A DNA stretch of 38,698 bases from Fidelibacterota bacterium UBA7300 (lineage in GTDB: Bacteria > Fidelibacterota > Marinisomatia > Marinisomatales > UBA2128), in assembly GCA_002471865.1 (NCBI GenBank), contig DKQU01000009.1, forward strand, positions 1,993 to 40,690. The letters are read 5' to 3'. The position numbers and the translations under genes are program-made. The notes below the pieces were generated by a model. It was not told the origin of the DNA. It did no database searches and saw nothing but the letters and a program-made list of their open reading frames with translations. Numbering within the stretch: the first letter of the stretch is position 1; each line of letters opens with the position of its first letter. Below are positions 7,548-27,600 of this stretch, one piece after another.

Positions 7548-8783
7548 TTGACAAATCGTGTTAAAATGATACATGGAATAATGACTCTATTCTTGTCTGT
7601 GGTTTTTCTTATGTTTCTCACTGTTTGTGAAGAAAGTATATATTCCAACCAACTTCCGGATGAAAATAATCATACGCTGGAAGGTTGGGGATTGGTTTGG
7701 AACGACGAATTTGACGGTGATGCTATTGATGGTCAAAAGTGGAATAAGCTCCTTTGGCGTCCCGGATGGGTAAATAATGAACTGCAGGCTTACACGGACC
7801 GTGACACGAATGTGTTTGTTCAGGATGGCAACTTGGTCATCCGAGCCTTGATTGAACCGGGGTTTTTTGGCACAGATTATACGGGTACTAGCTACACGGC
7901 TGATTATACCTCTGGCCGCTTGAATACAGCTGGCAAAGGAGAGTGGACATACGGCCGTTTTGATACCAGAGCCAAGCTACCGAAGGGGATTGGTTCCTGG
8001 CCTGCAATCTGGATGCTGGGATCTAATATATCTACTGTAGGATGGCCTCATTGTGGTGAAATCGATATTATGGAACACGTGGGCTTTGATGAAGGGAATA
8101 TTCACGCTTCGATCCACACGACTGATTACAACCACGTGAATGGTACTCAAAAATCCGGTCAGGTAATAATTCCGACCGCCACTGATTCTTTCCACGTTTA
8201 TTCTTTGGAGTGGGACAGCACCTATATTCGCTACCTAGTGGATGATGAACCCTATTTCTTTATTTACAATGACAGTAATGGTGATGAAGATAAGTGGCCA
8301 TTCAATAAACCTCAATACATTATACTTAACTTGGCAGTTGGTGGTGATTGGGGTGGTGCTCAAGGAATTGATCCTTCTGTTTTCCCAATGGAGATGAAAG
8401 TGGATTATGTCCGGGTCTTTGAAAAAAGTGAAAATTCAACCAATGTTAATGTAACATTTCAAGTTGATATGAAAAACGAGATAGTAAGCGGTGAGGGTGT
8501 CTGGCTTTCCGGCGGCAATATAAGCTCCGGTCAGCCCGGTGGCCTGCAGATGCAACCTGTGGCTGATACAACAGTATGGGAGGTAACCTTAACCTTGCCA
8601 CCTTATTCAAGTTATAATTATAAGTACAGAAATGGGCATTATCCGGATACTTGGTCTGGAGGATGGGAATCTGTGCCTGATGAATGTGGTGAAGGTTCAT
8701 ATAACGATAGGGCTTTATTAGTTGGTAATTCAGATACGACTCTGTCGGTTGTCTGTTTTAAGGAGTGTACAGCATGCGAATAA
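7548..8783 (+). CDS. GH16 laminarinase, probable lipoprotein, with a C-terminal Cys-containing beta-sandwich (CBM-like) domain and no T9SS CTD
   Basis: WGLVWNDEFDG...GEWTYGRFDTRAKLPKGIGSWPAIWMLG...GEIDIMEH...LNLAVGGDWGG...MKVDYVRVFE is a close paralog of the catalytic domain of 5886..7538. The ORF-track start is TTG 7548, but ATG 7566 (MIHGIMTLFLSVVFLMFLTVCEES, lipobox-like LTVC) is more likely. The tail reads VTFQVDMKNE...YNYKYRNG...VVCFKECTACE. Confidence 0.85.
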   Translation: MTNRVKMIHGIMTLFLSVVFLMFLTVCEESIYSNQLPDENNHTLEGWGLVWNDEFDGDAIDGQKWNKLLWRPGWVNNELQAYTDRDTNVFVQDGNLVIRALIEPGFFGTDYTGTSYTADYTSGRLNTAGKGEWTYGRFDTRAKLPKGIGSWPAIWMLGSNISTVGWPHCGEIDIMEHVGFDEGNIHASIHTTDYNHVNGTQKSGQVIIPTATDSFHVYSLEWDSTYIRYLVDDEPYFFIYNDSNGDEDKWPFNKPQYIILNLAVGGDWGGAQGIDPSVFPMEMKVDYVRVFEKSENSTNVNVTFQVDMKNEIVSGEGVWLSGGNISSGQPGGLQMQPVADTTVWEVTLTLPPYSSYNYKYRNGHYPDTWSGGWESVPDECGEGSYNDRALLVGNSDTTLSVVCFKECTACE

Positions 8784-10741
8784 TTATTGGATCAATTTTT
8801 CTTTTAAATATTCTTTTTTCACAGGGATTTTTACATGTCGAAAACGGGAATATTGTTGATGGTGAAGGTAGTCCAGTTATTTTAAAGGGTTTGGGTTTAG
8901 GCGGGTGGTTAGTTCCAGAAGGTTATATGCTCAACATACCAGGATATGGTTCACCCACGGAGATCGAAAATAAAATTGAAGCTTTACTTGGGGCTGATCT
9001 CGCAGCAGAATTTTGGGTTCTTTATCATGAAAATTATGTAGCACAAGCGGATATTGATCAGATTGCAGAATGGGGATTTAATTCTATTCGAATCCCATTT
9101 CATTACAAACAATTTTCACCATTACCAGGTGAAGTAAATCAATTTGGGTATGATATCATTGATTCACTTTTGTCATGGTGTGCACCTTATAACATGCATA
9201 TTATTTTGGATATGCATTGTGCTCCCGGTGGACAAAATAATGGCGAGATTAGTGACAGTGATGGTGTGGCTCGCTTATGGCTTGAGGATGGATATAAAGA
9301 GCATACCATTGAGATTTGGCATTCCATTGCTGAATATTATGCCGATGAGACCCTAATCGGTGGATATGATCTCATTAACGAACCTGTATTACCCGATGGA
9401 ATCAGCAGCGAAGATTTAAGAGAGTTGTACATTGACATTACCAATTCGATCCGGGAAGTAGATACAAACCATCTTCTCTTTATTGAAGGGAATTGGTATG
9501 GTACTGATTTCACTTCCTTGACGCCGCCGTGGGATGACAATATGTCCTATTCCTTTCATAAATACTGGAATGATGTAACGCAGGGCACCATCCAATATTT
9601 AATTAACATGAGCAATACTTATAATATTCCACTTTGGTTGGGTGAAACAGGGGAGAACTCAAATCACTGGGGATATGAAGTCATGCAACTTTGCGAATCA
9701 AATGATATAGGGTGGAACTGGTGGACTCATAAAAAACTGGAAAAAATAACAAGCCCGCTTTCAGCCATTATTACACCTCAATATCAGGATATTCTTGATT
9801 ACTGGAACGGTAACGGAAGCGAGCCAAGTACAGAATATGCCCAGGCTGCCCTGTTTGGTATGGCTATCAACTTAGCTATAGAAAATTGTGAATCCAGGCC
9901 GGGTGTTATTCCTGCACTAATGGACTCAACATATGGTGAATCACCCGTTCCTGTAACAGCTCATTCCATACCGGGAACAATCGCAGCGGTTGATTATGAT
10001 ATTGGTGCGCGAAATGTTGCCTACACTGATGTAGATTATATGAATACTGGAAACGGTGGTTATAATTGGGGTTGGTCCTACAGAAATGATGGTGTTGATA
10101 TTGAAGCTAACGGCGATGAAAATGGTCTACCCTATAATGTGGGCTGGACCGCTGTTGGTGAGTGGATCGGCTATACCATAGAAGATGTGACTGCCGGTAC
10201 TTACGATTTACTGGTCAGGGTATCCAGCAATGTAGACGGCGGGATTTTCTTCCTGGAACTCAATGGAACCAATTTAGGCGTTTTTTCTGTACCACATACC
10301 GGTGGCTGGTGGGCTTGGGAAACGATGACTATCCCAGATGTAATTATTGGTGATGAACCGCAATACCTGAAACTAATGACTGTCCAGGAAGGTTACAATA
10401 TTGAAGGGTTCACTTTTAGCGAAACAGCTAATTCTGGAGATGACGGAAGCGAAGAACTCATTCCCAAATCTTTTACACTGGGGAATTATCCGAATCCATT
10501 TAATTCTCAAACCACGATTTTCTATGATGCTCCATTAACCACTGATGTAAATCTAAGTATCTATGATATCAACGGCGTACAAGTAAAAAGGCTTTATTCC
10601 GGGTTAAGTAGTATTGGGGAAAACAAATTTATTTGGAATGGGGTTAATGATTTAGGTATGTTAGTGAGTTCTGGTGTCTACTTCTACCGACTTGAAGGCA
10701 ATGATTTTGTGCGAACCAGAAAAATGGTTCTAGTCAAATAA
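8765..10741 (+). CDS. GH5 glycoside hydrolase (beta-glucanase, possibly exo-1,3-beta type) + CBM6-like module + T9SS C-terminal sorting domain
   Basis: FNSIRIPFHY, ILDMHCAPGGQNNG, DLINEP (acid/base NEP) and LWLGETGE (nucleophile) are GH5 motifs. The CBM6-like region reads IPGTIAAVDYDIG...GWTAVGEWIGYTIEDVTAGTYDLLVRVSS..GGIFFLELNG. The CTD reads NYPNPFNSQTTIFYDAP...SGVYFYRL...RKMVLVK. The track start is GTG 8765, but ATG 8774 (MRIIIGSIFLLNILFSQG) is likely. Confidence 0.8.
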   Translation: MYSMRIIIGSIFLLNILFSQGFLHVENGNIVDGEGSPVILKGLGLGGWLVPEGYMLNIPGYGSPTEIENKIEALLGADLAAEFWVLYHENYVAQADIDQIAEWGFNSIRIPFHYKQFSPLPGEVNQFGYDIIDSLLSWCAPYNMHIILDMHCAPGGQNNGEISDSDGVARLWLEDGYKEHTIEIWHSIAEYYADETLIGGYDLINEPVLPDGISSEDLRELYIDITNSIREVDTNHLLFIEGNWYGTDFTSLTPPWDDNMSYSFHKYWNDVTQGTIQYLINMSNTYNIPLWLGETGENSNHWGYEVMQLCESNDIGWNWWTHKKLEKITSPLSAIITPQYQDILDYWNGNGSEPSTEYAQAALFGMAINLAIENCESRPGVIPALMDSTYGESPVPVTAHSIPGTIAAVDYDIGARNVAYTDVDYMNTGNGGYNWGWSYRNDGVDIEANGDENGLPYNVGWTAVGEWIGYTIEDVTAGTYDLLVRVSSNVDGGIFFLELNGTNLGVFSVPHTGGWWAWETMTIPDVIIGDEPQYLKLMTVQEGYNIEGFTFSETANSGDDGSEELIPKSFTLGNYPNPFNSQTTIFYDAPLTTDVNLSIYDINGVQVKRLYSGLSSIGENKFIWNGVNDLGMLVSSGVYFYRLEGNDFVRTRKMVLVK

Positions 10742-13484: not shown

Positions 13485-14429
13485 TCAGCTTACCGCAGGT
13501 TCCAACAGTTTAAGCGAAACGTAACTATCATCAGCCTCAAGGCGGGTCGGGATACCCAGCGGAAGTGTAGCCAAGTGACGGCCGTGACCGCACGGGAAGT
13601 TGGAGACAATGGGATAATCGCCATCTCCGCACACATCCATCACAATTTCATCTATAGATTTTCCAAATGGAATCTCTTCATCCTCGATGTTGATCATCTG
13701 TCCCACAATGATTCCGGCGATCCTGTCGAGTTTTCCGGCTCGCTTCAGCTGTAGCAGATCCCGGTCAATACGGTAGAATTTCTCATCCACGTCCTCTACG
13801 AATAGAATTGTCCCTTCCGTATCAAAATCCCAGCGAGTGCCGATCATTTTAGAAAGTAGAGTCAAGTTTCCGCCGAAGAGTTGACCGGTTACTTCGCCTG
13901 TTCGCAAGACTGTTGGCTGCAGTTCATTGGGAAACTCCAGTTTAGAAGGGTCATCACCACTGAGGACGGACAATAGATTGTTCAGTGTAAAGGGGTCTGC
14001 GGACTTCTCGAAGTTCCACAGCATGGGACCGTGGAAAGTAGTAAGTCCGCACTCTTTCTGTATAGCGCAGTGGAGGGCTGTGATATCGCTGAAGCCGACA
14101 AAAATTTTGGGATTGTCTCGAATGATCGAGTAGTCGAGTCCATCCGTAACACGGATTGAACCGTAACCACCCCGGGCACAGATGATAGCATCAATCTCAG
14201 GATCGGCAAAAAGCTCTTCCAGTTCACGAATCCGTTCTTCCGTGGATCCAGCATACTGATTCTCTCGGAGATGACATGCTGGCCCGAATTTCACCATGTA
14301 TCCTGCATCAGTCAAAACTTGAGCTGCAGTTCCGAGCTTATCCTTGGTCGTCCACCTTGCCGGTGAGGCGATACCGATGGTGTCTCCGCTTGGAAGTCGA
14401 GGCGGTTTTATAATACTATTCAATCTCAA
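13485..14429 (-). CDS. ldcA: LD-carboxypeptidase (muramoyl-tetrapeptide carboxypeptidase, peptidase S66)
   Basis: GDTIGIASPA, ARGGYGS, VGFSDITALH (nucleophile Ser) and FPCGHG (His) form the S66 pattern. There is no signal peptide, so a cytoplasmic location is expected. Confidence 0.85.
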   Translation of the reverse strand: MRLNSIIKPPRLPSGDTIGIASPARWTTKDKLGTAAQVLTDAGYMVKFGPACHLRENQYAGSTEERIRELEELFADPEIDAIICARGGYGSIRVTDGLDYSIIRDNPKIFVGFSDITALHCAIQKECGLTTFHGPMLWNFEKSADPFTLNNLLSVLSGDDPSKLEFPNELQPTVLRTGEVTGQLFGGNLTLLSKMIGTRWDFDTEGTILFVEDVDEKFYRIDRDLLQLKRAGKLDRIAGIIVGQMINIEDEEIPFGKSIDEIVMDVCGDGDYPIVSNFPCGHGRHLATLPLGIPTRLEADDSYVSLKLLEPAVS

Positions 14430-14628
14430 TGTTACTGTTGGCGATGTATTCCCGTTCGGAGAGCGACAGATTGATCTCCTTTTCCGCTAATCCCGTAGGT
14501 CTCACGGCTCTAGAAGTTTTACCGCCATGACCTGGATCAAGACAGAAGGAGACGCCAGAGAAATCCTGTCCGCTGAATAGCGATATAATCAACACTGAGA
14601 GATAAAGTGATATCTTAATATGATTCAT
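14416..14628 (-). pseudogene. Truncated N-acetylmuramoyl-L-alanine amidase (Amidase_3) remnant: signal peptide plus the first ~40 aa of the catalytic domain
   Basis: The 70-aa ORF reads MNHIKISLYLSVLIISLFSG..FCLDPGHGGKTSRAVRPTGLAEKEINLSLSER. It matches the start of AmiA/AmiC/CwlD-type domains (.DPGHGG.D.GA....G..EK..NL......L) and then stops. Its 3' end overlaps the ldcA start by 14 nt, so there is no room for the rest of the domain. Confidence 0.5.
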
Positions 14629-14632
14629 AAGA

Positions 14633-16756
14633 TTACTTCAGCAGCAACAGTTTTCTGGTCAACTGAAATGTTTCTCCACTGCCTAAAGGGTTAAACTCAC
14701 CTTTTAGCAAATAGACTCCACTGGCTGCTTCATCTCCATTCCAGTTGAATTTATACTCTCCACTCTCAACTTTACTATTCACCAGTTCATCTACCTCCCG
14801 TCCAAGGATGTCATGGGCAGTCACCCTAATTTTGCCGTTTGTTGGTAAATTGAAACGGATGGTAGTGCTGGAGTTAAAAGGGTTGGGATAGGCATCTATT
14901 GAGAAGTGGTTTGGGAGAGAAGGTTCTTCTGAAACTTGCAAATCTTCCAGGAGCCACTGAGTGATTTCCACCATCAGTTCATCATCCGGTTCCGGGCCAA
15001 ATAGCATCTCCGGGGGTGGGGTAGTATACAGGAACTGATATGCCTGCACGCCGAATGAGTGTCCTTCACTATCTTCCAAAATAGTAGATCCAATGAATGG
15101 ATCTATTTCAGCAGTGTTTATGGAATCCAATACATACCACGAAGTGTCTATCTGGAACGTTTGTCCCCAGAAACCAGTCATTTCATCTGGGGTAGCAGTT
15201 GATGGACCGGCAGAAAGACTCAGTTCCTCCAAATACAACTGACCCAAGGAATCGGAACTGAAACCCTCTAAGAGACGGCTACCAATCAGCCATGTGCCGT
15301 TGAAAAAGTCTCGTAATTGTTGTGTTAGCGAAGACGGTAGAGGATCAGCATCATCCAGAGTATAGATAATCTTTCCCTCATGTAAAAAATAAGTGGTATC
15401 CAGTTCGAATAGATCGTCGTTAACCGTTTCAAACGGGAAACCAATTCTGTCCAACCTTTGACCAAGCAGCGCCACAAAAGGGTGGGATGATTCAGTCCAT
15501 ACACCGTCTGTTCCGTCAAAAGCATCAACAATGACCAATGGTAAATTGGAGTCTCCCAACCGTAGCCCGTAAATGTCCGATTGTTCACTCTCATTTGGAA
15601 AAGGAGCATTGTCCACCGCCGTCAATTTGAAGTAGATGACCAAGTCCTGTGAGAAAGACGGAGCTATAAATTCAGAAGTGGTATCGGTCAGGACCGATTC
15701 ATCGTGATTGCTGGTCCAAGTTTCCATATCATAGCTGAAGTACAGACGATAACCAGCCAGGTCTTCTTCCGTGTTCGGCAGCCAGCGGATACTGAATCCC
15801 TCGCCTTCGCTTAGGACAGAGAGAAGAGTAGGTGCCGCTGGAGCTTCATTGTCCTGTTCAGTAACCTCGAATTCAACAGTCAAAGTGTCAATATTGTCTC
15901 TCGTATCCCAACAGAAAACTCTGGCGTTGTAGAATCCCTGCTCCCAATCGGTGACGTTCACGGATCCGTTATGGGTCAGGTGATTAGAAACGATGTAGTG
16001 ATACACGCTGGTGTTGGAGCCCTGGTGGAATACGTTGTGGACGTATGAATCGGTAGCCGGGATTTCATCAAACAGGTAGGGGAATCTAGGGCCTGCCACT
16101 ATGCTGTCATTCTGATCCACGATGTCGAAGCCAATCTTGTAGATACCGTTGTTCCCGCCGTAGGGACCCATGTCGGTTAGATCCGCAGACCGACTGACAA
16201 TATCCACCAGTCCGAATACACGATTATCAGTGAATTGGTTCGTAGTGCCGTCCTTAAAGAAGCGGATATTCATCACTTCGGGTTCGTAAGGGTCCTCGAA
16301 TGGATCCAGACCACCGCCATCCCGCAGGGCGTTAATCTCCGAACCAGGATATCCATCCTTGAAGTGGATGTGATTCCAGGAATTGGTCGTACCAAGGACA
16401 GTCTCAAAAGCGGTGACTTGATTACCCACAGAGAGTCCGGAGGCAGGATTTACATGTACATAAGCGTAACGTCCTACCCGAACCCAAGAGTTAATCCCGT
16501 AATCTGACGGCCAGCCGATGCTTGTGACAGTTCCATTAATAACAGAGTACACTTGGCCACCAGCAGATAGGTGCATGTCCACACCGTCGTGAAAGTGATC
16601 GATGGACCCGGATGTTCCTTCCCGGTTTTCGCAAAAAGTACCGTTGATCCAGTGCTGTTCGTCAAACGGTTCGCACGGCCAATTGTAGGAGTCAGCCCAA
16701 ATGAGCTGAAAACTTCCAGCAATAATAAAGATAGATGTTAATTTGAATCGGTTCAC
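14633..16756 (-). CDS. M23 (LytM-type) metallopeptidase + Fn3-like + uncharacterised ~200-aa module + T9SS C-terminal sorting domain
   Basis: Signal peptide. HFHDGVDM (HxxxD) and NHIHF (HxH) are M23 zinc ligand motifs. The Fn3-like region reads APAAPTLLSVLSEGEGFSIRWLP..LAGYRLYF. The module LPLVIVDAFDG... is shared with the GH18 protein. The CTD reads AYPNPFNSSTTIRFNLP...SGVYLL...RKLLLLK. Confidence 0.8.
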   Translation of the reverse strand: MNRFKLTSIFIIAGSFQLIWADSYNWPCEPFDEQHWINGTFCENREGTSGSIDHFHDGVDMHLSAGGQVYSVINGTVTSIGWPSDYGINSWVRVGRYAYVHVNPASGLSVGNQVTAFETVLGTTNSWNHIHFKDGYPGSEINALRDGGGLDPFEDPYEPEVMNIRFFKDGTTNQFTDNRVFGLVDIVSRSADLTDMGPYGGNNGIYKIGFDIVDQNDSIVAGPRFPYLFDEIPATDSYVHNVFHQGSNTSVYHYIVSNHLTHNGSVNVTDWEQGFYNARVFCWDTRDNIDTLTVEFEVTEQDNEAPAAPTLLSVLSEGEGFSIRWLPNTEEDLAGYRLYFSYDMETWTSNHDESVLTDTTSEFIAPSFSQDLVIYFKLTAVDNAPFPNESEQSDIYGLRLGDSNLPLVIVDAFDGTDGVWTESSHPFVALLGQRLDRIGFPFETVNDDLFELDTTYFLHEGKIIYTLDDADPLPSSLTQQLRDFFNGTWLIGSRLLEGFSSDSLGQLYLEELSLSAGPSTATPDEMTGFWGQTFQIDTSWYVLDSINTAEIDPFIGSTILEDSEGHSFGVQAYQFLYTTPPPEMLFGPEPDDELMVEITQWLLEDLQVSEEPSLPNHFSIDAYPNPFNSSTTIRFNLPTNGKIRVTAHDILGREVDELVNSKVESGEYKFNWNGDEAASGVYLLKGEFNPLGSGETFQLTRKLLLLK

Positions 16757-16767
16757 GGAATCAGTCC

Positions 16768-17949
16768 CTATTCAGCACTGTATTCCAAAAGTTCTCTGTC
16801 TAGCTGGAGGAAAAACTTTCCATCCTTGATCGGTAGAATATTCACAACTTTGTGGTAATCCCGGCTCACGGAAATCTCAGAGTGGCCCAACGTCTGCTGA
16901 TCAACGGTCATGATTCCAATGCTCCCCAATTCGTTTTTTCCTTCACTGTAGCGGCTGTTTCCGGCGTACAGGAGATGGACAGAAGAGCCTGCAGTAAAGA
17001 GTTCCAGCGGGATGAGCCTAGAGGGGAACTGAATCTCTGCCAAAGGTCTGTCGCTATTTGGTTTAAGGACAATCAGTCGCCTACTGTCTGCTGCGAACAA
17101 TGTTTCATCCGCCCAAATCATTTTCCTGGGAAGAATTTTGTAGTTGAAAGATGTTAAATCTTCCAGAGACAGTAGTATGAGTCTGTGCTGCTGATTGTAT
17201 TCCTGCCCAGATACAACTGTCCCGGAAATAGCGGCGTAGCCATTGGTGGAAAGAGAAATATTCCGCAGGACAGTAAGCGGCAATTCCTTTATTTCAAAGG
17301 GGGAATCGTTCAGATTCCAAGAGAACAGTGCAACATTATCTGTTTGATCCAGAGCTGCAGATTTCATTCCTGCTATATAAACGTGGCTCGGCGAATGGTG
17401 TGCAATAGCTATAACCTTTTCATGATCTCTATCATCATTGGAGAAGAGTGAATGAAATTCAGAAAGGGTGCCATCTTCATTCAGCAAGCGCACTTCTTGA
17501 CTCTGAGGATCGGTGATCACAATACGATTCCCGCCATTAATTGGGGCAAGGGAAGGAAAGGCATGATCCCAAGGGACATCTATTTCCCCGGAAAAAATCT
17601 CCTCATCCTCACTGGACATGACTGATATGGCCATAGTTCTGGAAGAGAACTGAACCGGATGTTCGATGGTGACGACTACGAATTGCTGAGTTCTATTTGA
17701 AGTGGTGGATATAACCTTCAGTACTTGTTCATTTTTATACTTCGTGATTGTTGGCCCAAGAGAGAGTTCATCTTCTATCCAGTAGCCGACGACTTCTCCA
17801 GCATGTGAAGTCAGAAGCTGAGCCCTCTCCGGAACGTCAAGAATGGTACGATTCTGAAGAGAGACCTGCCCAGAAAGTGATGAGATCGCAAATAGTGTAG
17901 CAAAAACAAGCGATAGATACCAAGTGTGTGTGTGGGTTTTGTACATCAC
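16768..17949 (-). CDS. Hypothetical secreted (periplasmic?) protein with no recognisable domain and no T9SS CTD
   Basis: 393-aa ORF with a signal-peptide-like N-terminus (WYLSLVFATLFAISSLSGQ). It is packed between the GHL10-like and M23 genes, with a 1-nt gap on one side and an 11-nt gap on the other. The only coding evidence is ORF length and operon context. Confidence 0.55.
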   Translation of the reverse strand: MMYKTHTHTWYLSLVFATLFAISSLSGQVSLQNRTILDVPERAQLLTSHAGEVVGYWIEDELSLGPTITKYKNEQVLKVISTTSNRTQQFVVVTIEHPVQFSSRTMAISVMSSEDEEIFSGEIDVPWDHAFPSLAPINGGNRIVITDPQSQEVRLLNEDGTLSEFHSLFSNDDRDHEKVIAIAHHSPSHVYIAGMKSAALDQTDNVALFSWNLNDSPFEIKELPLTVLRNISLSTNGYAAISGTVVSGQEYNQQHRLILLSLEDLTSFNYKILPRKMIWADETLFAADSRRLIVLKPNSDRPLAEIQFPSRLIPLELFTAGSSVHLLYAGNSRYSEGKNELGSIGIMTVDQQTLGHSEISVSRDYHKVVNILPIKDGKFFLQLDRELLEYSAE

Positions 17950-17950
17950 T

Positions 17951-19786
17951 TCATTTTATATATATCATAGGTATAGCTTGCATGTATTCATTTACACTTA
18001 ACTTACAAATATATACACCAGATGAAACTGGAAATCCTGTTTTATGTCTTGCATTCCAAATAATGGTATGTTCACCTGGAATAAAAGGATTATCTACAAG
18101 TGATATTACGTGGCGTCCAATCAAATCGTAAATATCCAGTTGGACAACCCCCAAATCTGGAAGTGAGAAAGGAATAACTGTTGTAGAATTGAATGGATTG
18201 GGAAAGTTATAACCGAGTGAATAGGAAGCGGGCAAGGGTGTTCTGCTTGCAAATACAATATTGGATGGGTCAGATTCATTCCTGGATCGATCAGCTTGAG
18301 TAGCAATGTACAGGGCAGTAGAATCTTGGACATTTGAAAAATCTGATTGGATCGTATAGGGTTCACCACCAAAGTGAATATCAATAATTTCAGATTCATC
18401 AGAGTTTATTAATTCTTCTGTTGAGCGGTAAAGAATTGACCACCTGTTTTCATTGGAATTGGATGGTATGATCGTAAGATCATGGGTAACCGAATCGATG
18501 TAGGTTAATATAAGGCTGGGAGCTTCTGGTGTTGACCCGTAGTTGCCCGGGATATTTCTTATCTTTGTTTTCTTGCTGAAAAAGGAGTTGCCGGCGGAAT
18601 ACCAGTAATCACGATCATCCCAGGATCCATAACTGAAAAACTGAAATCCATCAACCCATGGAATGGTACGGCAAGCTTCTACAATGGGATCATGATTGTC
18701 CCAGACATTATATTCTTCGAAGATGTATGATCCGGGACCCACGGTGAATAGTAGTCCGTCATTGATACCGGGTTGAATATACTGTCCCCAACATTCTGGA
18801 CAATTACCCTCCAGCATTCCGTAAAAGCTTTCCGCACTGTACCAGTGATAATGCATAGGCATGAGTTGATCAATATATCCTTCATTGAACCATAAAGCGG
18901 CATCCTGATAGACGGAGCCGTATCCCTGCCATCCTGACCAGTTATATTTTCCCAAAGCGGCCACAGAAAGACGAACATGTGGTTTTACAACTTGAATAGA
19001 GTCGTGAAGAGTGTTAACAAACTCAGTGACTGACCCGCGCCACCATTCTTCCCATGAGAAAAAGCCGTCAGGTACTCCTGCCGAGTATGGATGCAGATAG
19101 TCATAAAGATACCTTCCGGAACGGTTATTGTTTAGTGCTTCTAACTCTTCGTCGCTAATGATGCCGTCCATCCTTTGGAGTTCTTTTTCATGACTTACTT
19201 CTCCACGCAGACTGTTGGAATGTTCATTCCAACGGATATAATCCAGATGAAGGCCGTCTATATCGTAATTATTGACAATTTCCATAGCCACATCAATAGT
19301 GTACGCTCGCACATCTTCCAAGCCCGGGGATAAGGAGCGATAAGAATCCATACTGTAACCATCCTGATCACGGCAAATCCATTCGGGGTGTTCGGCAGCT
19401 GGTGCACCTTCATAAGTACTGGAACACTGAAAAACATTAAACCACGCATGGAGTTCTAAACCTCGTTTGTGTGCTTCCTGAATTGCATACTCCAATGGAT
19501 CATACCCTGGATACTGATACCCAGCATAATATCCCCACGGTTCATAGGACGATGTGTAGTAAGCTGTCCCACCTTGACGGACTTGAAACAGCACCGCGTT
19601 CATATTAGCTTCTTTATGGTTGTCCATGATCGTTTGAACATGTGCCTTATTAATATGAGCTGGAGCATTTCGGTCTATGTGATCCCAGGTAATCACCCAT
19701 GTAGCACGGAATTCTTTATTTTGTTGAGAAAGAAGGGACGAACAGATTGTCAAGAAAAGTCCCAATCTCTTTAACATAATTATCAT
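17951..19786 (-). CDS. Glycosyl-hydrolase-like 10 (GHL10, YddW/DigH-type, UPF0748) protein + T9SS C-terminal sorting domain
   Basis: EFRATWVITWDHID...NMNAVLFQVRQGGTAYYTSSYEPW...YDPLEYAIQEAHKRGLELHAWFNVF matches the YddW/GHL10 N-terminal pattern. The CTD reads GYNFPNPFNSTTVIPFSLP...SGVYICKL...PMIYIK. Confidence 0.75.
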   Translation of the reverse strand: MIIMLKRLGLFLTICSSLLSQQNKEFRATWVITWDHIDRNAPAHINKAHVQTIMDNHKEANMNAVLFQVRQGGTAYYTSSYEPWGYYAGYQYPGYDPLEYAIQEAHKRGLELHAWFNVFQCSSTYEGAPAAEHPEWICRDQDGYSMDSYRSLSPGLEDVRAYTIDVAMEIVNNYDIDGLHLDYIRWNEHSNSLRGEVSHEKELQRMDGIISDEELEALNNNRSGRYLYDYLHPYSAGVPDGFFSWEEWWRGSVTEFVNTLHDSIQVVKPHVRLSVAALGKYNWSGWQGYGSVYQDAALWFNEGYIDQLMPMHYHWYSAESFYGMLEGNCPECWGQYIQPGINDGLLFTVGPGSYIFEEYNVWDNHDPIVEACRTIPWVDGFQFFSYGSWDDRDYWYSAGNSFFSKKTKIRNIPGNYGSTPEAPSLILTYIDSVTHDLTIIPSNSNENRWSILYRSTEELINSDESEIIDIHFGGEPYTIQSDFSNVQDSTALYIATQADRSRNESDPSNIVFASRTPLPASYSLGYNFPNPFNSTTVIPFSLPDLGVVQLDIYDLIGRHVISLVDNPFIPGEHTIIWNARHKTGFPVSSGVYICKLSVNEYMQAIPMIYIK

Positions 19787-19953: not shown

Positions 19954-19986
19954 AAAAAAAGCCCCTTGGATCAAGGGGCTTTTTTT
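19954..19986 (-). terminator. Rho-independent terminator, symmetric (A-run / 8-bp GC-rich stem / T-run), downstream of the FG-GAP gene
   Basis: The sequence is aaaaaaAGCCCCTTggatcAAGGGGCTtttttt. It has a perfect 8-bp stem (19960-19967 pairing with 19973-19980) flanked by an A7 run and a T6 run. It lies 16 nt after the stop of the minus-strand gene 20002..21762 and separates that gene from the GHL10 operon. Confidence 0.85.
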
Positions 19987-20001: not shown

Positions 20002-21762
20002 TTACTTAAGCAACATCATCTGTTTGGACTTTTCAAAGTTTCCAAACTTCAGCGCATAGATATACATGCCGCTTGTAACATTCATCCCGTTTGCATCTTT
20101 GCCATTCCACAAGACAGAGTAGTTGCCTGCACGTTGATATTCCCTGTCAACAAGCTTCACAATTTCCTGCCCCAACATATTGTAAATAGTCAGAGAAATC
20201 GTATTCTGAAGAGGAAGACTGTACTCAATCCTTGTCGTGGCGTTGAATGGATTCGGGAAGTTCTGTGCCAGTTTGTAATCTTCCGGCATAATGAACGTTA
20301 TATCTCGAACGGTAACGGATCCATCATATTCAGCTAGACGAAAGACACGGTTCCCAGCTGGATCGAGTTCACCGCTTTCAAGAGTATCATTGACAGCTTG
20401 GTAAGGCAATAGAACTCCGAAATCTGCATCTCCCGGAAACCACGCTTTAGCTTTGAAACCCCAACCGGAAGTTGCATCGTCAAGAGCATAAGAGCTATGA
20501 GTCCAACTTGAAGAATCCAGTGGGTTTCCTCCAGCGGCAAGTTCAAACAAGTTAATGTCGCTCACTCCGGCTGTTCCACCATGAATAACTCCACCCATGC
20601 CCGAATTTGTAAAGCCCGCGCCGGTTGAAGTACCAAATCCGCCGCCGCCACCAAATTCGTGAATAATAGCAATCTCACTATTGCCGGTCCAATCACCAGG
20701 GCCGCCCGTTGTGTCAAGATTCGTGGCATCACCATCAGAGTCGGTGATCACAAACAAGCTTCCATCATAGTAACCGGTAACATAGACTTCGTCTTTTCCG
20801 TCGCCGTCATTATCTGCAGCAGAAGCGCCCAGAGTCCAGTCATCGGAAATCCCGAGTTTACGGTATGTTGTGTCGCCAATGGTGTAAGCATCAGGACCGG
20901 TTGCTTCAATAAAGAACATTGCCAGATTATTCCACGAGAAACAGGCTGCTTCCAAATTACCATCACCATCTGTGTCACAGATAATAATTTCCTGAGGGCT
21001 TCCACCACCCAGGGCATTTTCTCTAACGCCGTCTTTATCGACATCCCGGGGTGCCATGGAATATTCTTCCACAATGGTGGCACCAAAACCGCCAATTTCG
21101 CCGTCTACGGACAAAATGATGAACCGATCTTCAGAGTAGGGAGTTGAACCATCCTGAGTCCCATAATACGGATCCGATCCCCCATTATTTGCAAGAAGAA
21201 TCTCATCCTGTCCGTCACCATCAATGTCTCCAACGGAGAATCCTTCAACACGGGATTCACCAAGTGAATCATTCAATGCACTAAAAAAGTCAACCCGAAA
21301 AGCGGCTTCTGTACCGTACCCGTTATCTGTACCGTCCCATTCGTAAACATGCAGCCCTGCATCAGGATTAGACTCTCCTGTCCAGCGTCCAACGTGAAAG
21401 ATGATTTCACCGTTCCCATCGCCATCCAGGTCTCCGGTATGCACATCGCGGGGTGTAGAATAATCTGCGGTTATTTCGGCAGATGCCCACACGAAGGCTA
21501 ACGTATCCGTTCCGGCTTCTTCAAAGCAGAATACTTGGCCACCGTTTGAATAACTGGACACCCAAACTTCGTTGAGGCCGTCGCCATCTAGATCGGTACC
21601 TGCCAGAGATCCACGAGAAACACCAGAGGGATCTCCGCCAAACAGACTGTCACCCGTCTCAGTTATGAACGAGGGAGCAACACCAGATTGTACGAAATCT
21701 CCAGCGAAAACAAAAGATACCGTGCAAGTAATAATAAAAAGACCAGTAACTATTTTTCTCAT
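20002..21762 (-). CDS. FG-GAP/VCBS-repeat (integrin-alpha-like beta-propeller) protein with a T9SS C-terminal sorting domain
   Basis: Signal peptide. Repeated Ca-binding-type motifs are present: TDLDGDGLNEVWV, GDLDGDGNGEIIF, GDIDGDGQDEILL, CDTDGDGNLEAAC and ADNDGDGKDEVYV. The CTD reads QNFPNPFNATTRIEYSLP...SGMYIYAL...KQMMLLK. Confidence 0.8.
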   Translation of the reverse strand: MRKIVTGLFIITCTVSFVFAGDFVQSGVAPSFITETGDSLFGGDPSGVSRGSLAGTDLDGDGLNEVWVSSYSNGGQVFCFEEAGTDTLAFVWASAEITADYSTPRDVHTGDLDGDGNGEIIFHVGRWTGESNPDAGLHVYEWDGTDNGYGTEAAFRVDFFSALNDSLGESRVEGFSVGDIDGDGQDEILLANNGGSDPYYGTQDGSTPYSEDRFIILSVDGEIGGFGATIVEEYSMAPRDVDKDGVRENALGGGSPQEIIICDTDGDGNLEAACFSWNNLAMFFIEATGPDAYTIGDTTYRKLGISDDWTLGASAADNDGDGKDEVYVTGYYDGSLFVITDSDGDATNLDTTGGPGDWTGNSEIAIIHEFGGGGGFGTSTGAGFTNSGMGGVIHGGTAGVSDINLFELAAGGNPLDSSSWTHSSYALDDATSGWGFKAKAWFPGDADFGVLLPYQAVNDTLESGELDPAGNRVFRLAEYDGSVTVRDITFIMPEDYKLAQNFPNPFNATTRIEYSLPLQNTISLTIYNMLGQEIVKLVDREYQRAGNYSVLWNGKDANGMNVTSGMYIYALKFGNFEKSKQMMLLK

Positions 21763-21906: not shown

Positions 21907-24606
21907 ATGAAGGACGAAAAATTGGAAAGGAATTGTTTTGTGAATCTGAACCGTCAGTTTCTTATCCTTCTTTTATTAACATCTAATCTTTTTGCTGCAA
22001 GCGGCAAAGTTTCTGGTAGAATTATTAGTGCAGAAACGGGTGAACCTCTTCCTGGAGTTAATGTTATTATTGAAGAAGTATCACTAGGAGCTGCGACTGA
22101 TTTGAATGGTGAATATGTCATTTTAAATATACCCTCGGGGAGTTATACGCTTCATGTATCTTATATTGGATTTGCTAAGCATACGATTAAGGGTTTAAGC
22201 GTCTATACGGATCGGACAACTCGGCAAGATTTTTCCTTAAAACAGGAAGATATTGAGGGAGAAGAGGTTATAGTGGTAGCAGAAAGACCATTGATCCAGA
22301 AGGATCTAACAGCATCTCAAAAAACTCGAACAGCTGAGGATATTAAAGATATGCCGGTTGAAACCTTCTTGGGTGTTTTAACTACACAAGCAGGAGTAAA
22401 CCAGGGTGCAGGTGGAGAGCTTCATATAAGAGGCGGTCGATACAATGAAGTTGGGTATTACATAGATGGAATATCAGTAACTAATCCTTTTTTCACAAAT
22501 TCCCTTGCCACCAATGTAGCCAATAAAGCTATTGAGGAGATGAGAGTTGTAAGTGGTGCCTTTAATGCGGAATATGGGAATGCCATGAGTGGAATTGTTA
22601 ATCTTGAGATCAAAGAGGGAGGTCCAACATACGAAGGCAGTTTTTCCATGTATACCGGTGATTATCTCTCTAGTGATACCAAGATTTTTATGAATATTGA
22701 CGAGGTAAATTATTTATCCAATCAAGTTATTGAAGGAACGCTTAATGGTCCGGTACCTCTGCTTTCTACCGGGGGGAAATTCACTTTTAACGTAAGTGGA
22801 CGATACAGTAATAGTGACGGATATTTATATGGGAAACGGGAGCATCTGCCGGATGATTATGCAGATTTCAGGGTATCTGATTATTGGTATATTGAATTAG
22901 GTGGTGATAATAAATATGTACCTATGAATCCGTCAAACAGTTTGAATATGCTTACTAAACTAACTCTTAGAATTACCCCTAAGTTGAAAGTGTCGACACA
23001 GATGCTTCACGATCAACGCAATTGGAAATCATATAACCATGCGTACAAATACAATCCTGATGGCACTTACAATCACTTTACTGCAAATGACAATTTTTCT
23101 CTAAAGTTATCCCAAGTCTTCACAAAAACATTTTATGAAGCAAACGTGTTTTATTCTACTACGGATTTTAGCCAATATGTTTATGAAGACCCATTTGATG
23201 AAAGATATGTTTCTACAAATACTATTCAGGGAGCTCCTCCGACTACGACCTTCGTTTTCGGAGGTACACAGATGGGTCATTATTACCGGGAGTCTATATC
23301 CAAAGGAGGTAAATTTGACCTGACCAGCCAGATTACCAGTAAACATGAGATAAAAATAGGTGTTAGTGGTAGACTGGATGATCTTGAAGAAAACAATTTC
23401 ACCGTTCTCTATGATGGTTATGATTACCCAGTACCCACGGTTCTTCCTGCGAATGATTCCCCGAGCCATAACTATTATAACAAAAATGCATTTTTTGCCT
23501 CTTCCTACATTCAGGATAAAATTGAATACACTAACATGGTTGTAAATGCGGGTATCCGGTACGATTATTTTGATCCTAATGATAATTACATTGTGGATCA
23601 GTTAAATCCCGAGGGAGAAAGAGAGGAAGCCAAACCCAAATCAATGATCTCACCACGACTAGGTGTTTCATTTCCCATCACGGATCGCGGAGTTCTTCAC
23701 TTTTCCTATGGACATTTTTATCAAATGCCAACGCTGAGACGACTTTACAAAACCAGCATTTTTGGTGCTAATCTGTCACCGACGATCGGTTACAGTAATT
23801 TAAAGCCGGAAAAGACAGTAATGTATGAGTTTGGACTTCAGCAACAACTGTCTCACATTATAGCAGTTGATGTGAGCGCTTACTACAAGGACATTCGGGA
23901 TTTGCTTGCCGTTCAGTCCATAGATTATCAATCCCCAACTTACGGACCTGCTTCCTATAGCATTTATCTGAACAAAGATTATGCAACGGTGAAGGGTTTT
24001 GCTATCAGCTTAACAAAACGGTACGATCGTTTCTCTAAGACGTCTGCTTTTATTGATTATGCTTATCAGATGACCGATGGAAATGATGTTAACTCTGGAT
24101 CCTTCTACTTCAACGCATTGACAGGGGAAGAAGAGGAGAAAAGAATTGTTCCCCTTAATTGGGATCAATGGCATGTTTTTAACGCTACTATCACTATCAG
24201 TGATCCAAATAACTGGGGCATCAGTGTAATCGGTAAACTTTCAAGCGGTTGGCCTTATACGCCAGATATCCCCAATGCTAATTATGTCCCTGAATCTAAT
24301 AGCGCTCGAAAACCTTGGCAGAAAAGTGTAAATGTCAGAGTGTATAAAACCGTGAATGTGGGGAAAATGAATGTGGTTATATTTACCAAAATTTTTAATC
24401 TTTTTGATACGAGAAATGAAAGATACGTTTATGATGATACTGGTAGATCTGGTTATACTTTTATAAATCGAACCAATCAGGAAACAGAAGCATTTATAGA
24501 ACATTATGGCGAGCCCGGTGTTCATACCTGGGAAGAATATCAAGTTAGACCTCATTACTATAGTACTCCCCGATCAGTACAGATGGGGCTTTCACTGGAT
24601 TTTTAA
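21907..24606 (+). CDS. TonB-dependent outer-membrane receptor with an N-terminal carboxypeptidase-regulatory-like domain
   Basis: GKVSGRIISAETGEPLPGVNVIIEE..GAATDLNGEYVILNIPSGSYTLHVSYIGF is the CarbopepD_reg-like domain. The plug-like region reads EEVIVVAERP...DIKDMPVETFLGVLTTQAGV...LHIRGGR. A ~650-aa barrel follows, ending ..QMGLSLDF with a terminal Phe. The true start may be GTG 21940 (VNLNRQFLILLLLTSNLFAASG), which is preceded by GGAAAGGA. Confidence 0.85.
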   Translation: MKDEKLERNCFVNLNRQFLILLLLTSNLFAASGKVSGRIISAETGEPLPGVNVIIEEVSLGAATDLNGEYVILNIPSGSYTLHVSYIGFAKHTIKGLSVYTDRTTRQDFSLKQEDIEGEEVIVVAERPLIQKDLTASQKTRTAEDIKDMPVETFLGVLTTQAGVNQGAGGELHIRGGRYNEVGYYIDGISVTNPFFTNSLATNVANKAIEEMRVVSGAFNAEYGNAMSGIVNLEIKEGGPTYEGSFSMYTGDYLSSDTKIFMNIDEVNYLSNQVIEGTLNGPVPLLSTGGKFTFNVSGRYSNSDGYLYGKREHLPDDYADFRVSDYWYIELGGDNKYVPMNPSNSLNMLTKLTLRITPKLKVSTQMLHDQRNWKSYNHAYKYNPDGTYNHFTANDNFSLKLSQVFTKTFYEANVFYSTTDFSQYVYEDPFDERYVSTNTIQGAPPTTTFVFGGTQMGHYYRESISKGGKFDLTSQITSKHEIKIGVSGRLDDLEENNFTVLYDGYDYPVPTVLPANDSPSHNYYNKNAFFASSYIQDKIEYTNMVVNAGIRYDYFDPNDNYIVDQLNPEGEREEAKPKSMISPRLGVSFPITDRGVLHFSYGHFYQMPTLRRLYKTSIFGANLSPTIGYSNLKPEKTVMYEFGLQQQLSHIIAVDVSAYYKDIRDLLAVQSIDYQSPTYGPASYSIYLNKDYATVKGFAISLTKRYDRFSKTSAFIDYAYQMTDGNDVNSGSFYFNALTGEEEEKRIVPLNWDQWHVFNATITISDPNNWGISVIGKLSSGWPYTPDIPNANYVPESNSARKPWQKSVNVRVYKTVNVGKMNVVIFTKIFNLFDTRNERYVYDDTGRSGYTFINRTNQETEAFIEHYGEPGVHTWEEYQVRPHYYSTPRSVQMGLSLDF

Positions 24607-24629
24607 TGTTAATCAGGAGTTGTTTGTAA

Positions 24630-27600
24630 ATGAAGCTTAAAATAGAAATTTCAAGAACTTCTATTTTTCTTCTTTTGATAAGTTTATTAATAATTATTCC
24701 TTTCAATACGCTCTCCAGTCAATGGAAGTTCTTTGGAAAGAAAGATAATACAGCCATGCACGAACTTGTGCCAGAAAAGGATTGGCCTGAGTGGAAATAC
24801 CGCGACTACTACGACTGGCGTAACACGGCATTGATGAGACAGTTGGATGATGAAGATGACCCGCAGATACTTAGACGGCAAAAAGCTATTCTTGTAGGTA
24901 ATAAGATTTCCGCTGAAATCTGGAATTTTGGATCTATTTCCAGCCCAGGAAATCATACTTCCGATATTGTATGGGAAGGACTCGGATATGGATATGAATT
25001 TGGTCCGTTTATTTGCGCAGAAGTTGAAGTGACTCCATCCAGCCATCAGGATGCTTACATCAAGACCGATGAACTTGGAAATCCGGTTATCAACGAGGAG
25101 GGCGACACTGTCTGGGTAGCGAGAGTCATTAGTGATGGTTTGGTTTCTCTGGGAGGTGAAGTATCACCTGATGGTCAAGAATTCTGGGGATGGCAGCCTC
25201 TTGCATATAACAATGAGCTTGTTCCTTATGCGGATCCTAACAGCAATTATATCCCCACATCAAATGATGTGGACCGCGATGGTGATGGTAAACCAGACAG
25301 CTGGCCTGAAGGGTGGTACAATGAGAATCTAAAGGAATTTGTTTGGCCCGGGGCTCTAAAACAAGGTGCATCTAATTCTGATATGGAAAGCTTCTTTGTG
25401 GTGGACGACCGAACTAACAAGGAATTTGAATATTATCCAATCAGCAACGATTCTACCCGTAAAGGACTTGGAATTGAAATTGAATGTCGGTATTACCAGT
25501 GGTCCAACCCTTTAGCTGAAGATATTATTTTTCTTATTTACAAAGTTACTAATGTCAGTGACAAAGATCTTGAGGAAGTCATATTTGGAATGTGGGGTGA
25601 TCCCCATGTTGGCGGATGGGCAAACTGGCAGGATGACCTCTCCTTTTTTGATCAAGATATAAATATGGTGTACTGCTGGGATGAAGATGGAGTCAGTGAT
25701 GTGTCTGGACGTCCCCCGGGGTATTTTGGCTATAAATTTCTGGAGAGTCCAGGGAACCCATATGATGGTATAGATAACGACGATGATAATATGATAGACG
25801 AAAGCCGGAGTGACGGAATCGATAACGATTTAGATTGGGATGTTGAAAAACATGATGTTGGAGTTGACGGTCTTCCTAATACTGGCGACGAAGGTGAAGG
25901 AGATGGTGAGCCAACCGCAGGAGATCCTTTTGATATCCGCGAACCTGGAGAACCTAATTACGAATGGACTGACTTGGACGAGGCGGATATGGTGGGGTTA
26001 ACAGGATTTTCCTCACCTGTGTTCGGAGGAAATAACACCATATCAGAAGATCATCACGTATTCGAAGATTTTTTGACTCCGGGAGTATTTGATTCTGCAA
26101 ATGCTAATACGGCCGGAGATTATATTTTCATCTACAGCTCAGGACCGATTGATCTACCTGCTGGAGAAGCTCGGCGGTTTTCAGTCGCATTGTTGGTAGG
26201 ACAAAATTATCAAGATCTTACATTGAATGCTGTGACAGCTCAAAGCATATATGAGCGGAATTATCAATTTGCAAAACCTCCTGAAAAACCTAAGGTCACA
26301 GCTGTTCCAGGTGATGAGAAGGTGACCTTCTACTGGGATGACGTGGCGGAATCTTCTGTGGATCCAATTTCAGAAACAGAAGATTTTGAGGGGTATGTTA
26401 TCTATCGCAGCACCGATCCGCAGTTCTTGGATCAGCAAACAATCACAGACGCTTACGGTTCGAATTTTCTGTTTACTCCACTAGAAATGGTGGGAGGAGC
26501 CCCTGCCCGATTTGACCTTGATAATGAATATAGCGGTTTAAGTGATATTCTTTATACCGGGCATGGTATTCCCTATAACCTTGGCAACAATACTGGAATC
26601 CTGCACTCTTTTGTGGACTCTAACAATGTGATTAACGGTCAAACATATTACTATGCCGTTGTCTCTTATGATCATGGAGATGATAGCTTGGAGATAGCTC
26701 CCGCAGAATGTTCCAAACTGATTACACTAAATCCTGAATCGAACGAAATTTTCCTCGATGTGAATACAGTACAGATCATTCCTCGCTCTCCCGCTGCAGG
26801 ATATGTGGAAGGACAAGTAATAGATGATGATATTTTACACCTATCGGGAATTGCTACAGGGAACCTGAGAGTTGAGATTATCGATCCTATGAAAATAGAA
26901 GATCAGGATACATTTAAAGTAACTTTTCAGGAGTCGCCAACTCGGTTTTCCATTGAGGACCTGAAACTCATAGATGATCAGTTTATCGCCAATGTAGATA
27001 AATTTATCTCTCTTTCTCATAAGAATATCAATGATAGTACTTTTTATCTTACAGATACGGCAGAAGTAAATATCTATAACAGAGATGTAGATTATGAACT
27101 TGATGCAGAATTCGGTCGTATAAAAGCCCTCGCTACTGGAGATTTGGAGGATGGAATCCTCTATTTTGCCAAGTATACCTACTTACCGATTTTTGAGAGC
27201 CAGTTGATAGATAATGAAGAAGCGAATCCTGTATTTGATGGGATGAAGATCTTTGTTGAAGACCAACCCTTGGAGATTGACATTTCAAAGACGGGATGGA
27301 ATGCATTAAGTCCGACAAATTATACTGCAGTTGTCGGAGTGTATTCACAAGGTGGGAACTCTTATCCGGCAGATTATGAAGTTCGTTTTGCATCATCAAT
27401 TGTTGACACAGGATCTTATTCAGGCATTTTTACTCCATTCAATATATATAAAACCACTATGGGCATGGTTCCCGAAAAGCAGAGGTTTGCAATTATCAAA
27501 AAACCGCCCGATGTAAGCAATGATACCTGGGACACGCACGATGAAATCGTGTTGTTTGAGGGAGAGGGATTTGGATCGCCAACTTGGATGATTAAATTCT

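Follow-up and report, generated by a model that had tools for sequence, protein, structure and literature searches.

Remnants of peptidoglycan, with their D-amino acids, account for a substantial share of the dissolved and particulate organic nitrogen of the sea and turn over slowly, and SAR406/Marinimicrobia are among the most abundant bacteria of the dark ocean. To our knowledge, the organisms and machinery that depolymerize these remnants are poorly defined. The only cultured member of the phylum, Fidelibacter multiformis IA91, lives on exogenous muropeptides (PMC11652737). Flavobacterium johnsoniae can use fragments of Bacillus peptidoglycan as a source of carbon for growth (PMC6401489), and peptidoglycan degradation has been proposed, on thinner evidence, for marine Dadabacteria (PMC8115339). 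Here we describe a stretch of 38,698 nucleotides (the window) from contig DKQU01000009.1 of Fidelibacterota bacterium UBA7300, whose minus strand carries a string of five genes encoding a GHL10-family protein, a beta-propeller, an M23 peptidase, the stump of an Amidase_3 enzyme, and LdcA. From computational evidence, and with a probability of roughly 0.6, we read the window as a reduced Marinimicrobia “peptidoglycan utilization” locus that serves the uptake and catabolism of foreign murein. The searchable literature contained no description of a Marinimicrobia peptidoglycan locus or of one that depends on the type IX secretion system (T9SS), a search that leaves room for a prior account in the primary IA91 paper (10.1038/s41564-024-01717-7).

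A preliminary description of this DNA had listed five minus-strand open reading frames (ORFs), and recomputing their coordinates returned the same genes with the same spacing, namely three gaps of 1, 11, and 4 nt and then an overlap of 14 nt. The genes, and the element that bounds them on the 5′ side, are as follows (CTD, C-terminal domain).

19962–19985, minus strand: hairpin and T-run terminator of the upstream FG-GAP gene, the 5′ boundary of the five-gene string.
17951–19786, minus strand: GHL10-CTD gene, 611 aa, signal-like N terminus.
16768–17949, minus strand: beta-propeller gene (unk393), 393 aa, signal-like N terminus, no CTD.
14633–16756, minus strand: M23-CTD gene, 707 aa, signal peptide, T9SS CTD.
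14416–14628, minus strand: Amidase_3 stump, 70 aa, a pseudogene that has kept its signal peptide.
13485–14429, minus strand: LdcA gene, 314 aa, TTG start, no signal peptide.

The first four products have hydrophobic, signal-like N termini and LdcA has none. A 215-nt AT-rich spacer that includes the strong hairpin separates the string from the upstream gene, with about 170 nt past the hairpin, and the downstream neighbors converge on the string. Because the five genes lie on the same strand, are separated by no more than 11 nt or overlap, and follow an upstream terminator, it is plausible that they form one transcription unit. A scan for sigma-70 promoters was uninformative (26 sites against 17.9 expected), and promoters of other types are probably in use in this phylum. 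The same arrangement recurs in an independent assembly of Tara Oceans run ERR599037, with overlapping DNA that is 100% identical and products that are 99.7 to 100% identical. We mapped the window proteins onto 32 genome loci and four metagenome loci (cited below by L numbers) and annotated the unmatched genes. The gene order is kept across 41 to 83% protein identity in more than 20 genomes, a conservation well beyond chance. Relatives of the M23 protein in species-representative genomes belong to Marinimicrobia (Neomarinimicrobiota/Fidelibacterota) and, more distantly, to Calditrichota.

The M23 endopeptidase proposed in the preliminary description falls short in Pfam, where its domain scores 24.6 bits against a gathering threshold of 28.7 for PF01551. 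Nevertheless, we consider the assignment sound because all of 68 full-length relatives keep the zinc-binding and catalytic motifs (H56-x3-D60, H101, and H129-x-H131) unchanged and because, among solved structures, the M23 peptidase 9gy1 and LytM match best; many orthologues also carry a precomputed PF01551 match. Its CTD passes both PF18962 (30.9 bits versus 27) and TIGR04183 (29.6 versus 23), and the CTD motif residues P624, N625, P626, G652, and G680 (PNPF motif) are invariant in the same 68 relatives. An AlphaFold model built from 68 sequences (predicted local distance difference test score, pLDDT, of 90.5) divides the protein into a signal helix, the M23 domain (approximately residues 40–135), an Ig-like region (160–300), an fn3 domain (310–400), an alpha/beta domain (405–605), and the CTD (618–707). 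A profile of the alpha/beta domain gives weak Pfam matches only (DUF4960, ABC_transp_aux, DUF4159, and ThuA), and a profile search of the PDB gave nothing significant for it; a glutamine-amidotransferase-like fold of the DUF4960/ThuA/DUF4159 class is suggested. A glycan-binding surface protein from the levan utilisome of Bacteroides belongs to this class. A fold search with the whole model matched mostly fn3 and Ig chains. MepM and ShyA are further peptidoglycan endopeptidases of the LytM/lysostaphin type, whose HxxxD and HxH motifs and extra catalytic His are common to the window protein. Unlike in that type, however, the M23 domain of the window is short, divergent, and placed at the N terminus of a 707-aa Ig/fn3/alpha-beta/CTD protein, and its gene is paired with one for an unnamed beta-propeller.

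This partner, unk393, corresponds to the “unknown secreted protein” of the preliminary description, and both parts of that label fit: it has a signal-like N terminus, and it has no match in Pfam. Its AlphaFold2 model is all-beta (pLDDT 74), and a fold search with the model returned generic WD40-, NHL-, and BamB-type propellers only, from which no function could be assigned. The family is narrow, with 24 representative clusters among 1.84 billion proteins. The propeller gene sits directly upstream of the M23 gene in 25 of the 32 loci, and the two reading frames often overlap or nearly touch. A second pair of this kind is present in L002, a locus 78% identical to the window, where an Amidase_3-CTD gene is followed by a gene for a PD40 propeller (L002:10613–11527) that has a signal peptide and lacks a CTD; BLASTP detected no relation between unk393 and the PD40 protein. 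The idea of two propeller partners draws on fold class and position, and such propellers may be escort or immunity partners of exported murein hydrolases.

The product of the first gene matches PF02638 over residues 25–314 with 132.2 bits, far above the gathering threshold of 27.9, which bears out its placement in the GHL10 family. It consists of a TIM barrel (approximately residues 22–400), a linker/Ig region, and a T9SS type A CTD (528–611). The latter passes TIGR04183 (25.2 bits versus 23) and fails PF18962 (16.5 versus 27), so the word “canonical”, previously applied to the CTDs of both the GHL10 and M23 proteins, suits the M23 protein and is slightly generous for this one. The closest solved relative is Cwp19 (5oq2, E = 2e-30), and identity to E. 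coli DigH is 25%. Cwp19 residues W36, Q77, W127, D196/Y197, and Y297 are conserved, while the window protein and its orthologues have Q in place of R132 and M in place of Q295; the catalytic roles of these putative active-site residues are conjectural even for Cwp19. A further mark of the window subfamily is an insertion of approximately 60 aa after the HLDYIRW motif.

Judged by the 25% identity, the CTD, and the insertion, the window protein represents a divergent subfamily and is no DigH orthologue. The earlier designation “GHL10/YddW-like” therefore holds for the family and not for orthology to DigH, against which the low identity, the R132 replacement, and the insertion all speak. DigH and Cwp19 belong to the same Pfam family and share the conserved barrel residues named above, but they carry a lipoprotein anchor or cell-wall-binding repeats where the window protein has a T9SS CTD. 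This difference predicts that the window protein faces outward rather than lying in the periplasm or at the septum. DigH cleaves denuded murein glycans (PMC12288456), and Cwp19 is a lytic transglycosylase acting on murein glycan (PMC6016235). The window protein might act on denuded glycans by analogy with DigH rather than by demonstrated orthology, with its specificity suggested by gene context. Orthologues are abundant in marine metagenomes, either as CTD proteins of approximately 615 aa or as forms of approximately 1030 aa with Big_5 domains; within the genome loci the gene is a variable member, present in 5 of 32. In E. coli K-12 (L034, 1560000–1575000), digH lies approximately 4.4 kb from ddpX and the ddp transporter genes, and a single gene string of Marinimicrobia includes genes for both a GHL10 protein and a DdpX-like protein. 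This likeness is probably a coincidence.

The identification of LdcA was confirmed by both S66 domains (PF02016, 133.7 bits; PF17676, 117.1 bits; each above its cut-off) and by the presence of the S114, E212, H282 triad, and its predicted cytoplasmic location agrees with the absence of a signal-like segment. A score of 169 against the 378 required by the NCBIfam equivalog PRK11253 places the protein in the family, below equivalog level. Its TTG start is common to relatives. The public call in the identical Logan contig (L001:6927–7739) gives a protein of 270 aa that begins 44 codons too late and so loses the first part of the S66 N-domain; we rejected an N-terminally truncated LdcA because the 314-aa form aligns with that domain over its whole length and with the L003 orthologue.

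The fourth gene, previously described as an Amidase_3 remnant, is a true remnant. Its match to PF01520 reaches 22.9 bits against a threshold of 27 and covers profile positions 2–32 only, and the 70-aa ORF corresponds to residues 44–116 of the 762-aa Amidase_3-CTD protein of L002, with a 28-aa internal deletion. The signal peptide and the first 45 or so residues of the catalytic domain are kept. Following the internal deletion, a second deletion of approximately 2.8 kb fuses the stump to the last PD40-propeller codons immediately ahead of the LdcA start. The junction of M23 stop and amidase start recurs in a 97%-identical contig from another sample, which likewise lacks PBP4; we found no PBP4 gene anywhere in the window. 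An assembly artifact was ruled out as the origin of the stump by the identical independent assembly and by this junction common to the 97% relative.

The relatives reveal what the intact locus contains. Its conserved core across the 32 loci consists of the beta-propeller, M23-CTD, PBP4 (DacB), and LdcA, and from these comparisons we take the propeller and M23 genes to be the invariant unit. The string begins with a GHL10-CTD gene (variable), the unk393 propeller, M23-CTD, a GATase1/C26-like gene (variable), a PBP4/DacB lipoprotein (TIGR00666, 240 bits versus 108), and LdcA. There follow two Gate-domain (SpmA/SpmB-like) membrane proteins, a DdpX-like D-Ala-D-Ala dipeptidase of the M15 family (variable), and a second LdcA (variable). 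At its end stand an amino-acid permease (variable) and at least one of GHL10-CTD, GH18-CTD, a D-aminopeptidase-like protein with a beta-lactamase fold, and an M14 carboxypeptidase (variable). PBP4 follows M23 in 21 of the 32 loci, and LdcA is part of the string in 21 of 32. AnmK and a glucosamine-6-P-isomerase-like gene often lie nearby. The genes for Amidase_3 and PBP4 are dispensable in several lineages.

Linkage of PBP4, LdcA, and the SpmA/SpmB-like Gate pair is seen in L007 (L007:10112–13609) and in most Marinimicrobia loci. B. subtilis has a dacB-spmA-spmB operon. By analogy, the linkage hints that proteins of the SpmA/B type handle a murein-derived solute. A small cytoplasmic protein resembling class-I GATases and C26 peptidases is encoded between M23 and PBP4 in L006:10134–10808, L005:4517–5167, and L010:10174–10824, and its target could be the gamma-D-Glu bond in stem peptides.

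Comparison with close relatives also traces how the window copy was reduced. L002 has the order M23, PBP4, Amidase_3-CTD (762 aa), PD40 propeller (304 aa), LdcA. An 83%-identical relative (L036–L038, including GCA_002311395.1) has the order FG-GAP, GHL10, propeller, M23, PBP4, LdcA, with flanks as in the window, that is, HAD, PRAI, and endonuclease genes on one side and a receptor cassette on the other. The Amidase_3-CTD/PD40 pair that L002 keeps was lost with different breakpoints in the window (14416–14640), in the 83% relative (L036–L038; L036:13456–13730), and in L003 (L003:11450–11800), which indicates that its loss was recurrent; the site looks like a hot spot of recurrent independent loss. 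The sequence comparisons thus indicate that a conserved Marinimicrobia locus has been partly eroded in the window, where a reduced copy remains.

Beyond the five-gene string, the window is rich in CTD-tagged hydrolases and carries the following features.

20002–21762, minus strand: FG-GAP/VCBS propeller protein with a T9SS CTD, a conserved neighbor between the receptor cassette and the M23 string.
21907–24606, plus strand: SusC-like TonB-dependent receptor (CarboxypepD_reg and Plug), divergent from the five-gene string.
24630–28061, plus strand: 1143-aa protein at the SusD position, with a C-terminal region of approximately 180 aa in common with the ORF at 134–1732.
27982–29115, plus strand: PorV-like outer-membrane protein, a 36%-identical paralogue of the ORF at 1750–2802.
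29216–30517, plus strand: N-acetylmuramoyl-L-alanine amidase of the peptidoglycan recognition protein (PGRP) type (Amidase_2 at residues 187–318) with a CTD, last in the receptor cassette.
30608–33070, minus strand: GH18, fn3, alpha/beta module, and T9SS CTD, with a catalytic domain near YdhD/YaaH/SleL.
33076–34380, minus strand: diaminopimelate decarboxylase LysA (TIGR01048, 378 bits), 5 nt upstream of the GH18 gene.
35509–35581, plus strand: tRNA-Glu(TTC), the sole tRNA of the window.

The receptor cassette spans positions 21907–30517 on the plus strand. Its receptor scores 81 bits against the 368 of TIGR04056 through the N-terminal part only and is SusC-like in that part. The 1143-aa protein has no SusD, Pfam, or PDB match, even at E = 1. 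Among solved proteins, the closest relatives of the Amidase_2-CTD protein are catalytic PGRPs and T7 lysozyme, and the GH18 domain is nearest B. subtilis YdhD and the cortex-lytic YaaH/SleL, with chitinases ranking behind. The C-terminal module of the GH18 protein (fn3, alpha/beta, and CTD) is common to the M23 protein and the L002 amidase, and a GH18 orthologue directly follows the second LdcA in L007 and L032. A TonB-dependent receptor lies within 8 kb of the string in 14 of the 32 loci; the receptor cassette runs divergently in 13 loci and, in L003, co-directionally and directly upstream. In relatives, the cassette comprises the receptor and a protein of more than 1000 aa, followed by an FG-GAP CTD protein, and a PorV-like porin is present in the window, L003, and L010.

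LysA occupies the place where relatives carry the second LdcA. It might channel scavenged meso-diaminopimelate to lysine, or the adjacency might be coincidental. At 134–10741, on the plus strand, there is a second block of the utilization type, most of whose products have T9SS CTDs; it contains a protein whose last 180 or so residues match the C terminus of the 1143-aa protein, a PorV-like porin, a 499-aa protein, three GH16 enzymes, and a GH5 enzyme with CBM6. Its target is probably laminarin or another beta-glucan. The two blocks suggest a repeated SusD-less scaffold of receptor, giant protein, and PorV-like protein that takes exchangeable enzyme sets.

The sequences show the gene content, its order and conservation, the intact catalytic motifs, the signal peptides and CTDs, and the history of deletions. 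From these we infer a pathway in which co-transcription, export, substrates, uptake route, and the role of the propeller would fit together as follows. The CTD-tagged M23 protein, GHL10 protein, PGRP-type amidase, and SleL-like GH18 protein, joined in relatives by Amidase_3, would be exported by Sec and cross the outer membrane via the T9SS. At the cell surface or in seawater they would cut cross-links, strip stem peptides, and cleave glycan strands in the wall debris of other bacteria. The fragments would enter through the adjacent TonB-dependent receptor cassette. In relatives, the periplasmic PBP4 lipoprotein would un-crosslink them and remove terminal D-Ala, and their permease, their SpmA/B-like proteins, or both would carry peptides across the inner membrane. 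Cytoplasmic LdcA would then remove D-Ala4 to leave the tripeptide, and the DdpX-like dipeptidase, M14 enzyme, and D-aminopeptidase-like enzyme of relatives would finish the breakdown. Most plausibly, the propeller would be a periplasmic escort or inhibitor that keeps the folded M23 enzyme off the cell's own sacculus before export.

Several lines of evidence argue that the substrate is external: the CTDs conserved on every lytic enzyme, the accessory domains of surface-enzyme type, the receptor linked to the locus, and the cassette of the same design with GH16/GH5 beta-glucanases in the window, which points to an architecture for nutrient acquisition. That the substrate is murein is supported by the PGRP-type amidase-CTD at the end of the receptor cassette, by a GH18-CTD protein nearer to cortex-lytic enzymes than to chitinases, and by the murein glycan activity of DigH and Cwp19, the characterized close members of GHL10. 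The processing of external rather than self murein, put forward as a question in the preliminary description, gains support from the PBP4, second LdcA, DdpX-like, M14, and D-aminopeptidase-like enzymes, permease, and nearby AnmK of relatives, from receptor linkage, the additional CTD-bearing murein enzymes, and the conserved CTDs. The lifestyle of IA91 and the growth of F. johnsoniae on wall fragments also favor it.

Other observations weigh against this interpretation. The window copy lacks PBP4, the Amidase_3/PD40 pair, and the downstream catabolic genes of relatives, and this organism may have only part of the pathway or encode the rest at another site. Cells also commonly use PBP4, LdcA, and AnmK to recycle their own wall, and no AmpG, NagZ, Mpl, or MurQ was seen in the window. 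T9SS machinery there amounts to the two PorV-like genes. The M23 domain is below its Pfam cut-off, and the substrate of the GHL10 protein is uncertain, since the Arg common to Cwp19 and DigH at position 132 is Gln there and a GHL10 member, DogH, is reported to act on starch (PMC9967864). In Calditrichota, the propeller–M23 pair occurs without LdcA or PBP4.

The same degradation of external murein could instead feed the cell's own wall, with tripeptide and amino sugars entering wall synthesis as in IA91. IA91 cannot make peptidoglycan precursors. IA91 and class AB16 depend on exogenous muropeptides, a dependence said to be ancestral to the phylum (PMC11652737). LdcA, which makes an imported tetrapeptide reusable, and the AnmK gene near the string in relatives would suit such an economy. 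However, the DdpX-like, M14, and D-aminopeptidase-like enzymes of relatives, with their amino-acid permease, suggest that breakdown goes to completion; the loci showed no Mpl, AmpG, or MurQ; and IA91 reportedly draws on released muropeptides without lysing walls. We therefore regard wall building as an unlikely purpose. A purely domestic role for the enzymes appears very unlikely. It would have M23, the amidase, and a DigH-like glycosidase cooperate in cell separation, with turnover left to PBP4 and LdcA and with CTDs that are vestigial or serve another localization. M23/LytM factors, amidases, and DigH do act together at the E. coli septum (PMC12288456), and turnover and recycling are the classical roles of PBP4, LdcA, and AnmK. 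Yet the CTD residues are invariant in the M23 family, CTDs recur on GHL10, Amidase_2, Amidase_3, and GH18 proteins, and the M23 catalytic site is full rather than that of a degenerate activator. The Ig, fn3, and alpha/beta domains of the model are typical of surface enzymes, a TonB receptor adjoins the locus, and several lineages dispense with Amidase_3 and PBP4.

The pairing of propeller and M23 could also be that of weapon and antidote, the exported M23 (and Amidase_3) being lytic toxins and the CTD-less propellers unk393 and PD40 conferring periplasmic immunity, with the metabolic genes secondary. Such a role would account for the frequency of the pairing (25 of 32 loci) and its often overlapping or near-touching frames, for its persistence in Calditrichota without LdcA and PBP4, and for the second pair in L002. 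Bdellovibrio provides a parallel in a dedicated immunity protein that guards against its own secreted PBP4-type endopeptidases. In intact diderm cells, the prevailing kind in seawater, the murein is, however, out of reach of freely secreted hydrolases, and no delivery apparatus is present. The tight linkage to a TonB receptor and peptide-catabolic genes fits poorly, and self-protection by a propeller is equally compatible with nutrition, so a weapon seems decidedly improbable. Least probable of the explanations is that murein is not the substrate at all, and that GHL10 and GH18 act on a different polymer containing GlcNAc, such as chitin, poly-N-acetylglucosamine, or glycoproteins, and M23 is a general protease for Gly-rich proteins, with the link to LdcA incidental. 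GHL10 specificity is indeed not fixed, as the reported action of DogH on starch illustrates, and the closest structural neighbor of Cwp19 is PgaB (PMC5765458); the active site of the window protein is divergent, chitinases form the majority of GH18 enzymes, and the window is rich in further glycan-degrading CTD enzymes. But a conserved gene order in which PBP4, two LdcA paralogues, a D-Ala-D-Ala dipeptidase, and a pair of murein amidases take part would then be hard to explain, as would a GH18 domain that ranks nearest to cortex-lytic enzymes.

If the foreign-murein reading is correct, the cultured example of the phylum, IA91, would be extended from passive muropeptide uptake to active wall digestion. 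The locus, present in an abundant uncultured phylum and combining exported lytic enzymes with a dedicated receptor in the outer membrane and the catabolism of D-peptides, would supply marker genes for murein turnover in metagenomes and metatranscriptomes. More tentatively, and at somewhat less than even odds, SAR406 bacteria could be specialist consumers of necromass walls through a T9SS-dependent locus in which a surface endopeptidase, amidases, and glycosidases work with a SusD-less TonB receptor cassette, a periplasmic PBP4, and LdcA, DdpX, and M14 peptidases in the cytoplasm, and each exported hydrolase travels with a shielding periplasmic propeller of a new kind. The divergent GHL10 protein, the multidomain M23 protein, and the propeller partners are unstudied enzymes and proteins for biochemistry, and they raise the general question of how cells with a T9SS shield their sacculus while folded murein hydrolases pass by it on the way out.

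Set beside described systems, the locus shares with Gram-negative murein recycling (AmpG-NagZ-AmpD-LdcA-Mpl and AnmK/MurQ) an S66 LdcA with its Ser-Glu-His triad and, in relatives, PBP4 and AnmK. Unlike that pathway, the loci lack AmpG, NagZ, AmpD, and Mpl, their lytic enzymes are predicted to work beyond the outer membrane, and they are linked to a TonB receptor and degradative D-peptidases. The polysaccharide utilization loci (PULs) of Bacteroidota, including T9SS-dependent ones such as the chitin locus of F. johnsoniae, resemble it in having a SusC-like receptor that adjoins CTD-bearing depolymerases and intracellular processing enzymes. In contrast to these PULs, it has no adjacent SusC/SusD pair, with a protein of more than 1000 aa and a PorV-like porin instead of SusD, and its target would be murein, a polymer of peptide as well as glycan, and not simply a polysaccharide. 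B. subtilis offers the nearest relatives of the GH18 protein in YaaH/SleL and YdhD, and its dacB-spmA-spmB operon parallels the linkage in relatives of a DD-carboxypeptidase with an SpmA/SpmB-like pair; here, however, there is no sporulation context, PBP4 belongs to family S13 and not S11, and the GH18 protein has fn3, the alpha/beta module, and a CTD where the cortex enzymes have LysM domains. IA91, of the same phylum, uses the wall fragments of others as a source of wall, carbon, and energy and is described as taking up muropeptides released by growing bacteria, and the accessible part of PMC11652737 mentions neither an exported lytic set nor a TonB receptor; the loci described here come from marine and other uncultured lineages. 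By analogy with these systems, the locus, whose enzymes belong to known families, would work like a SusC-type utilization locus combined with the degradative steps of murein recycling.

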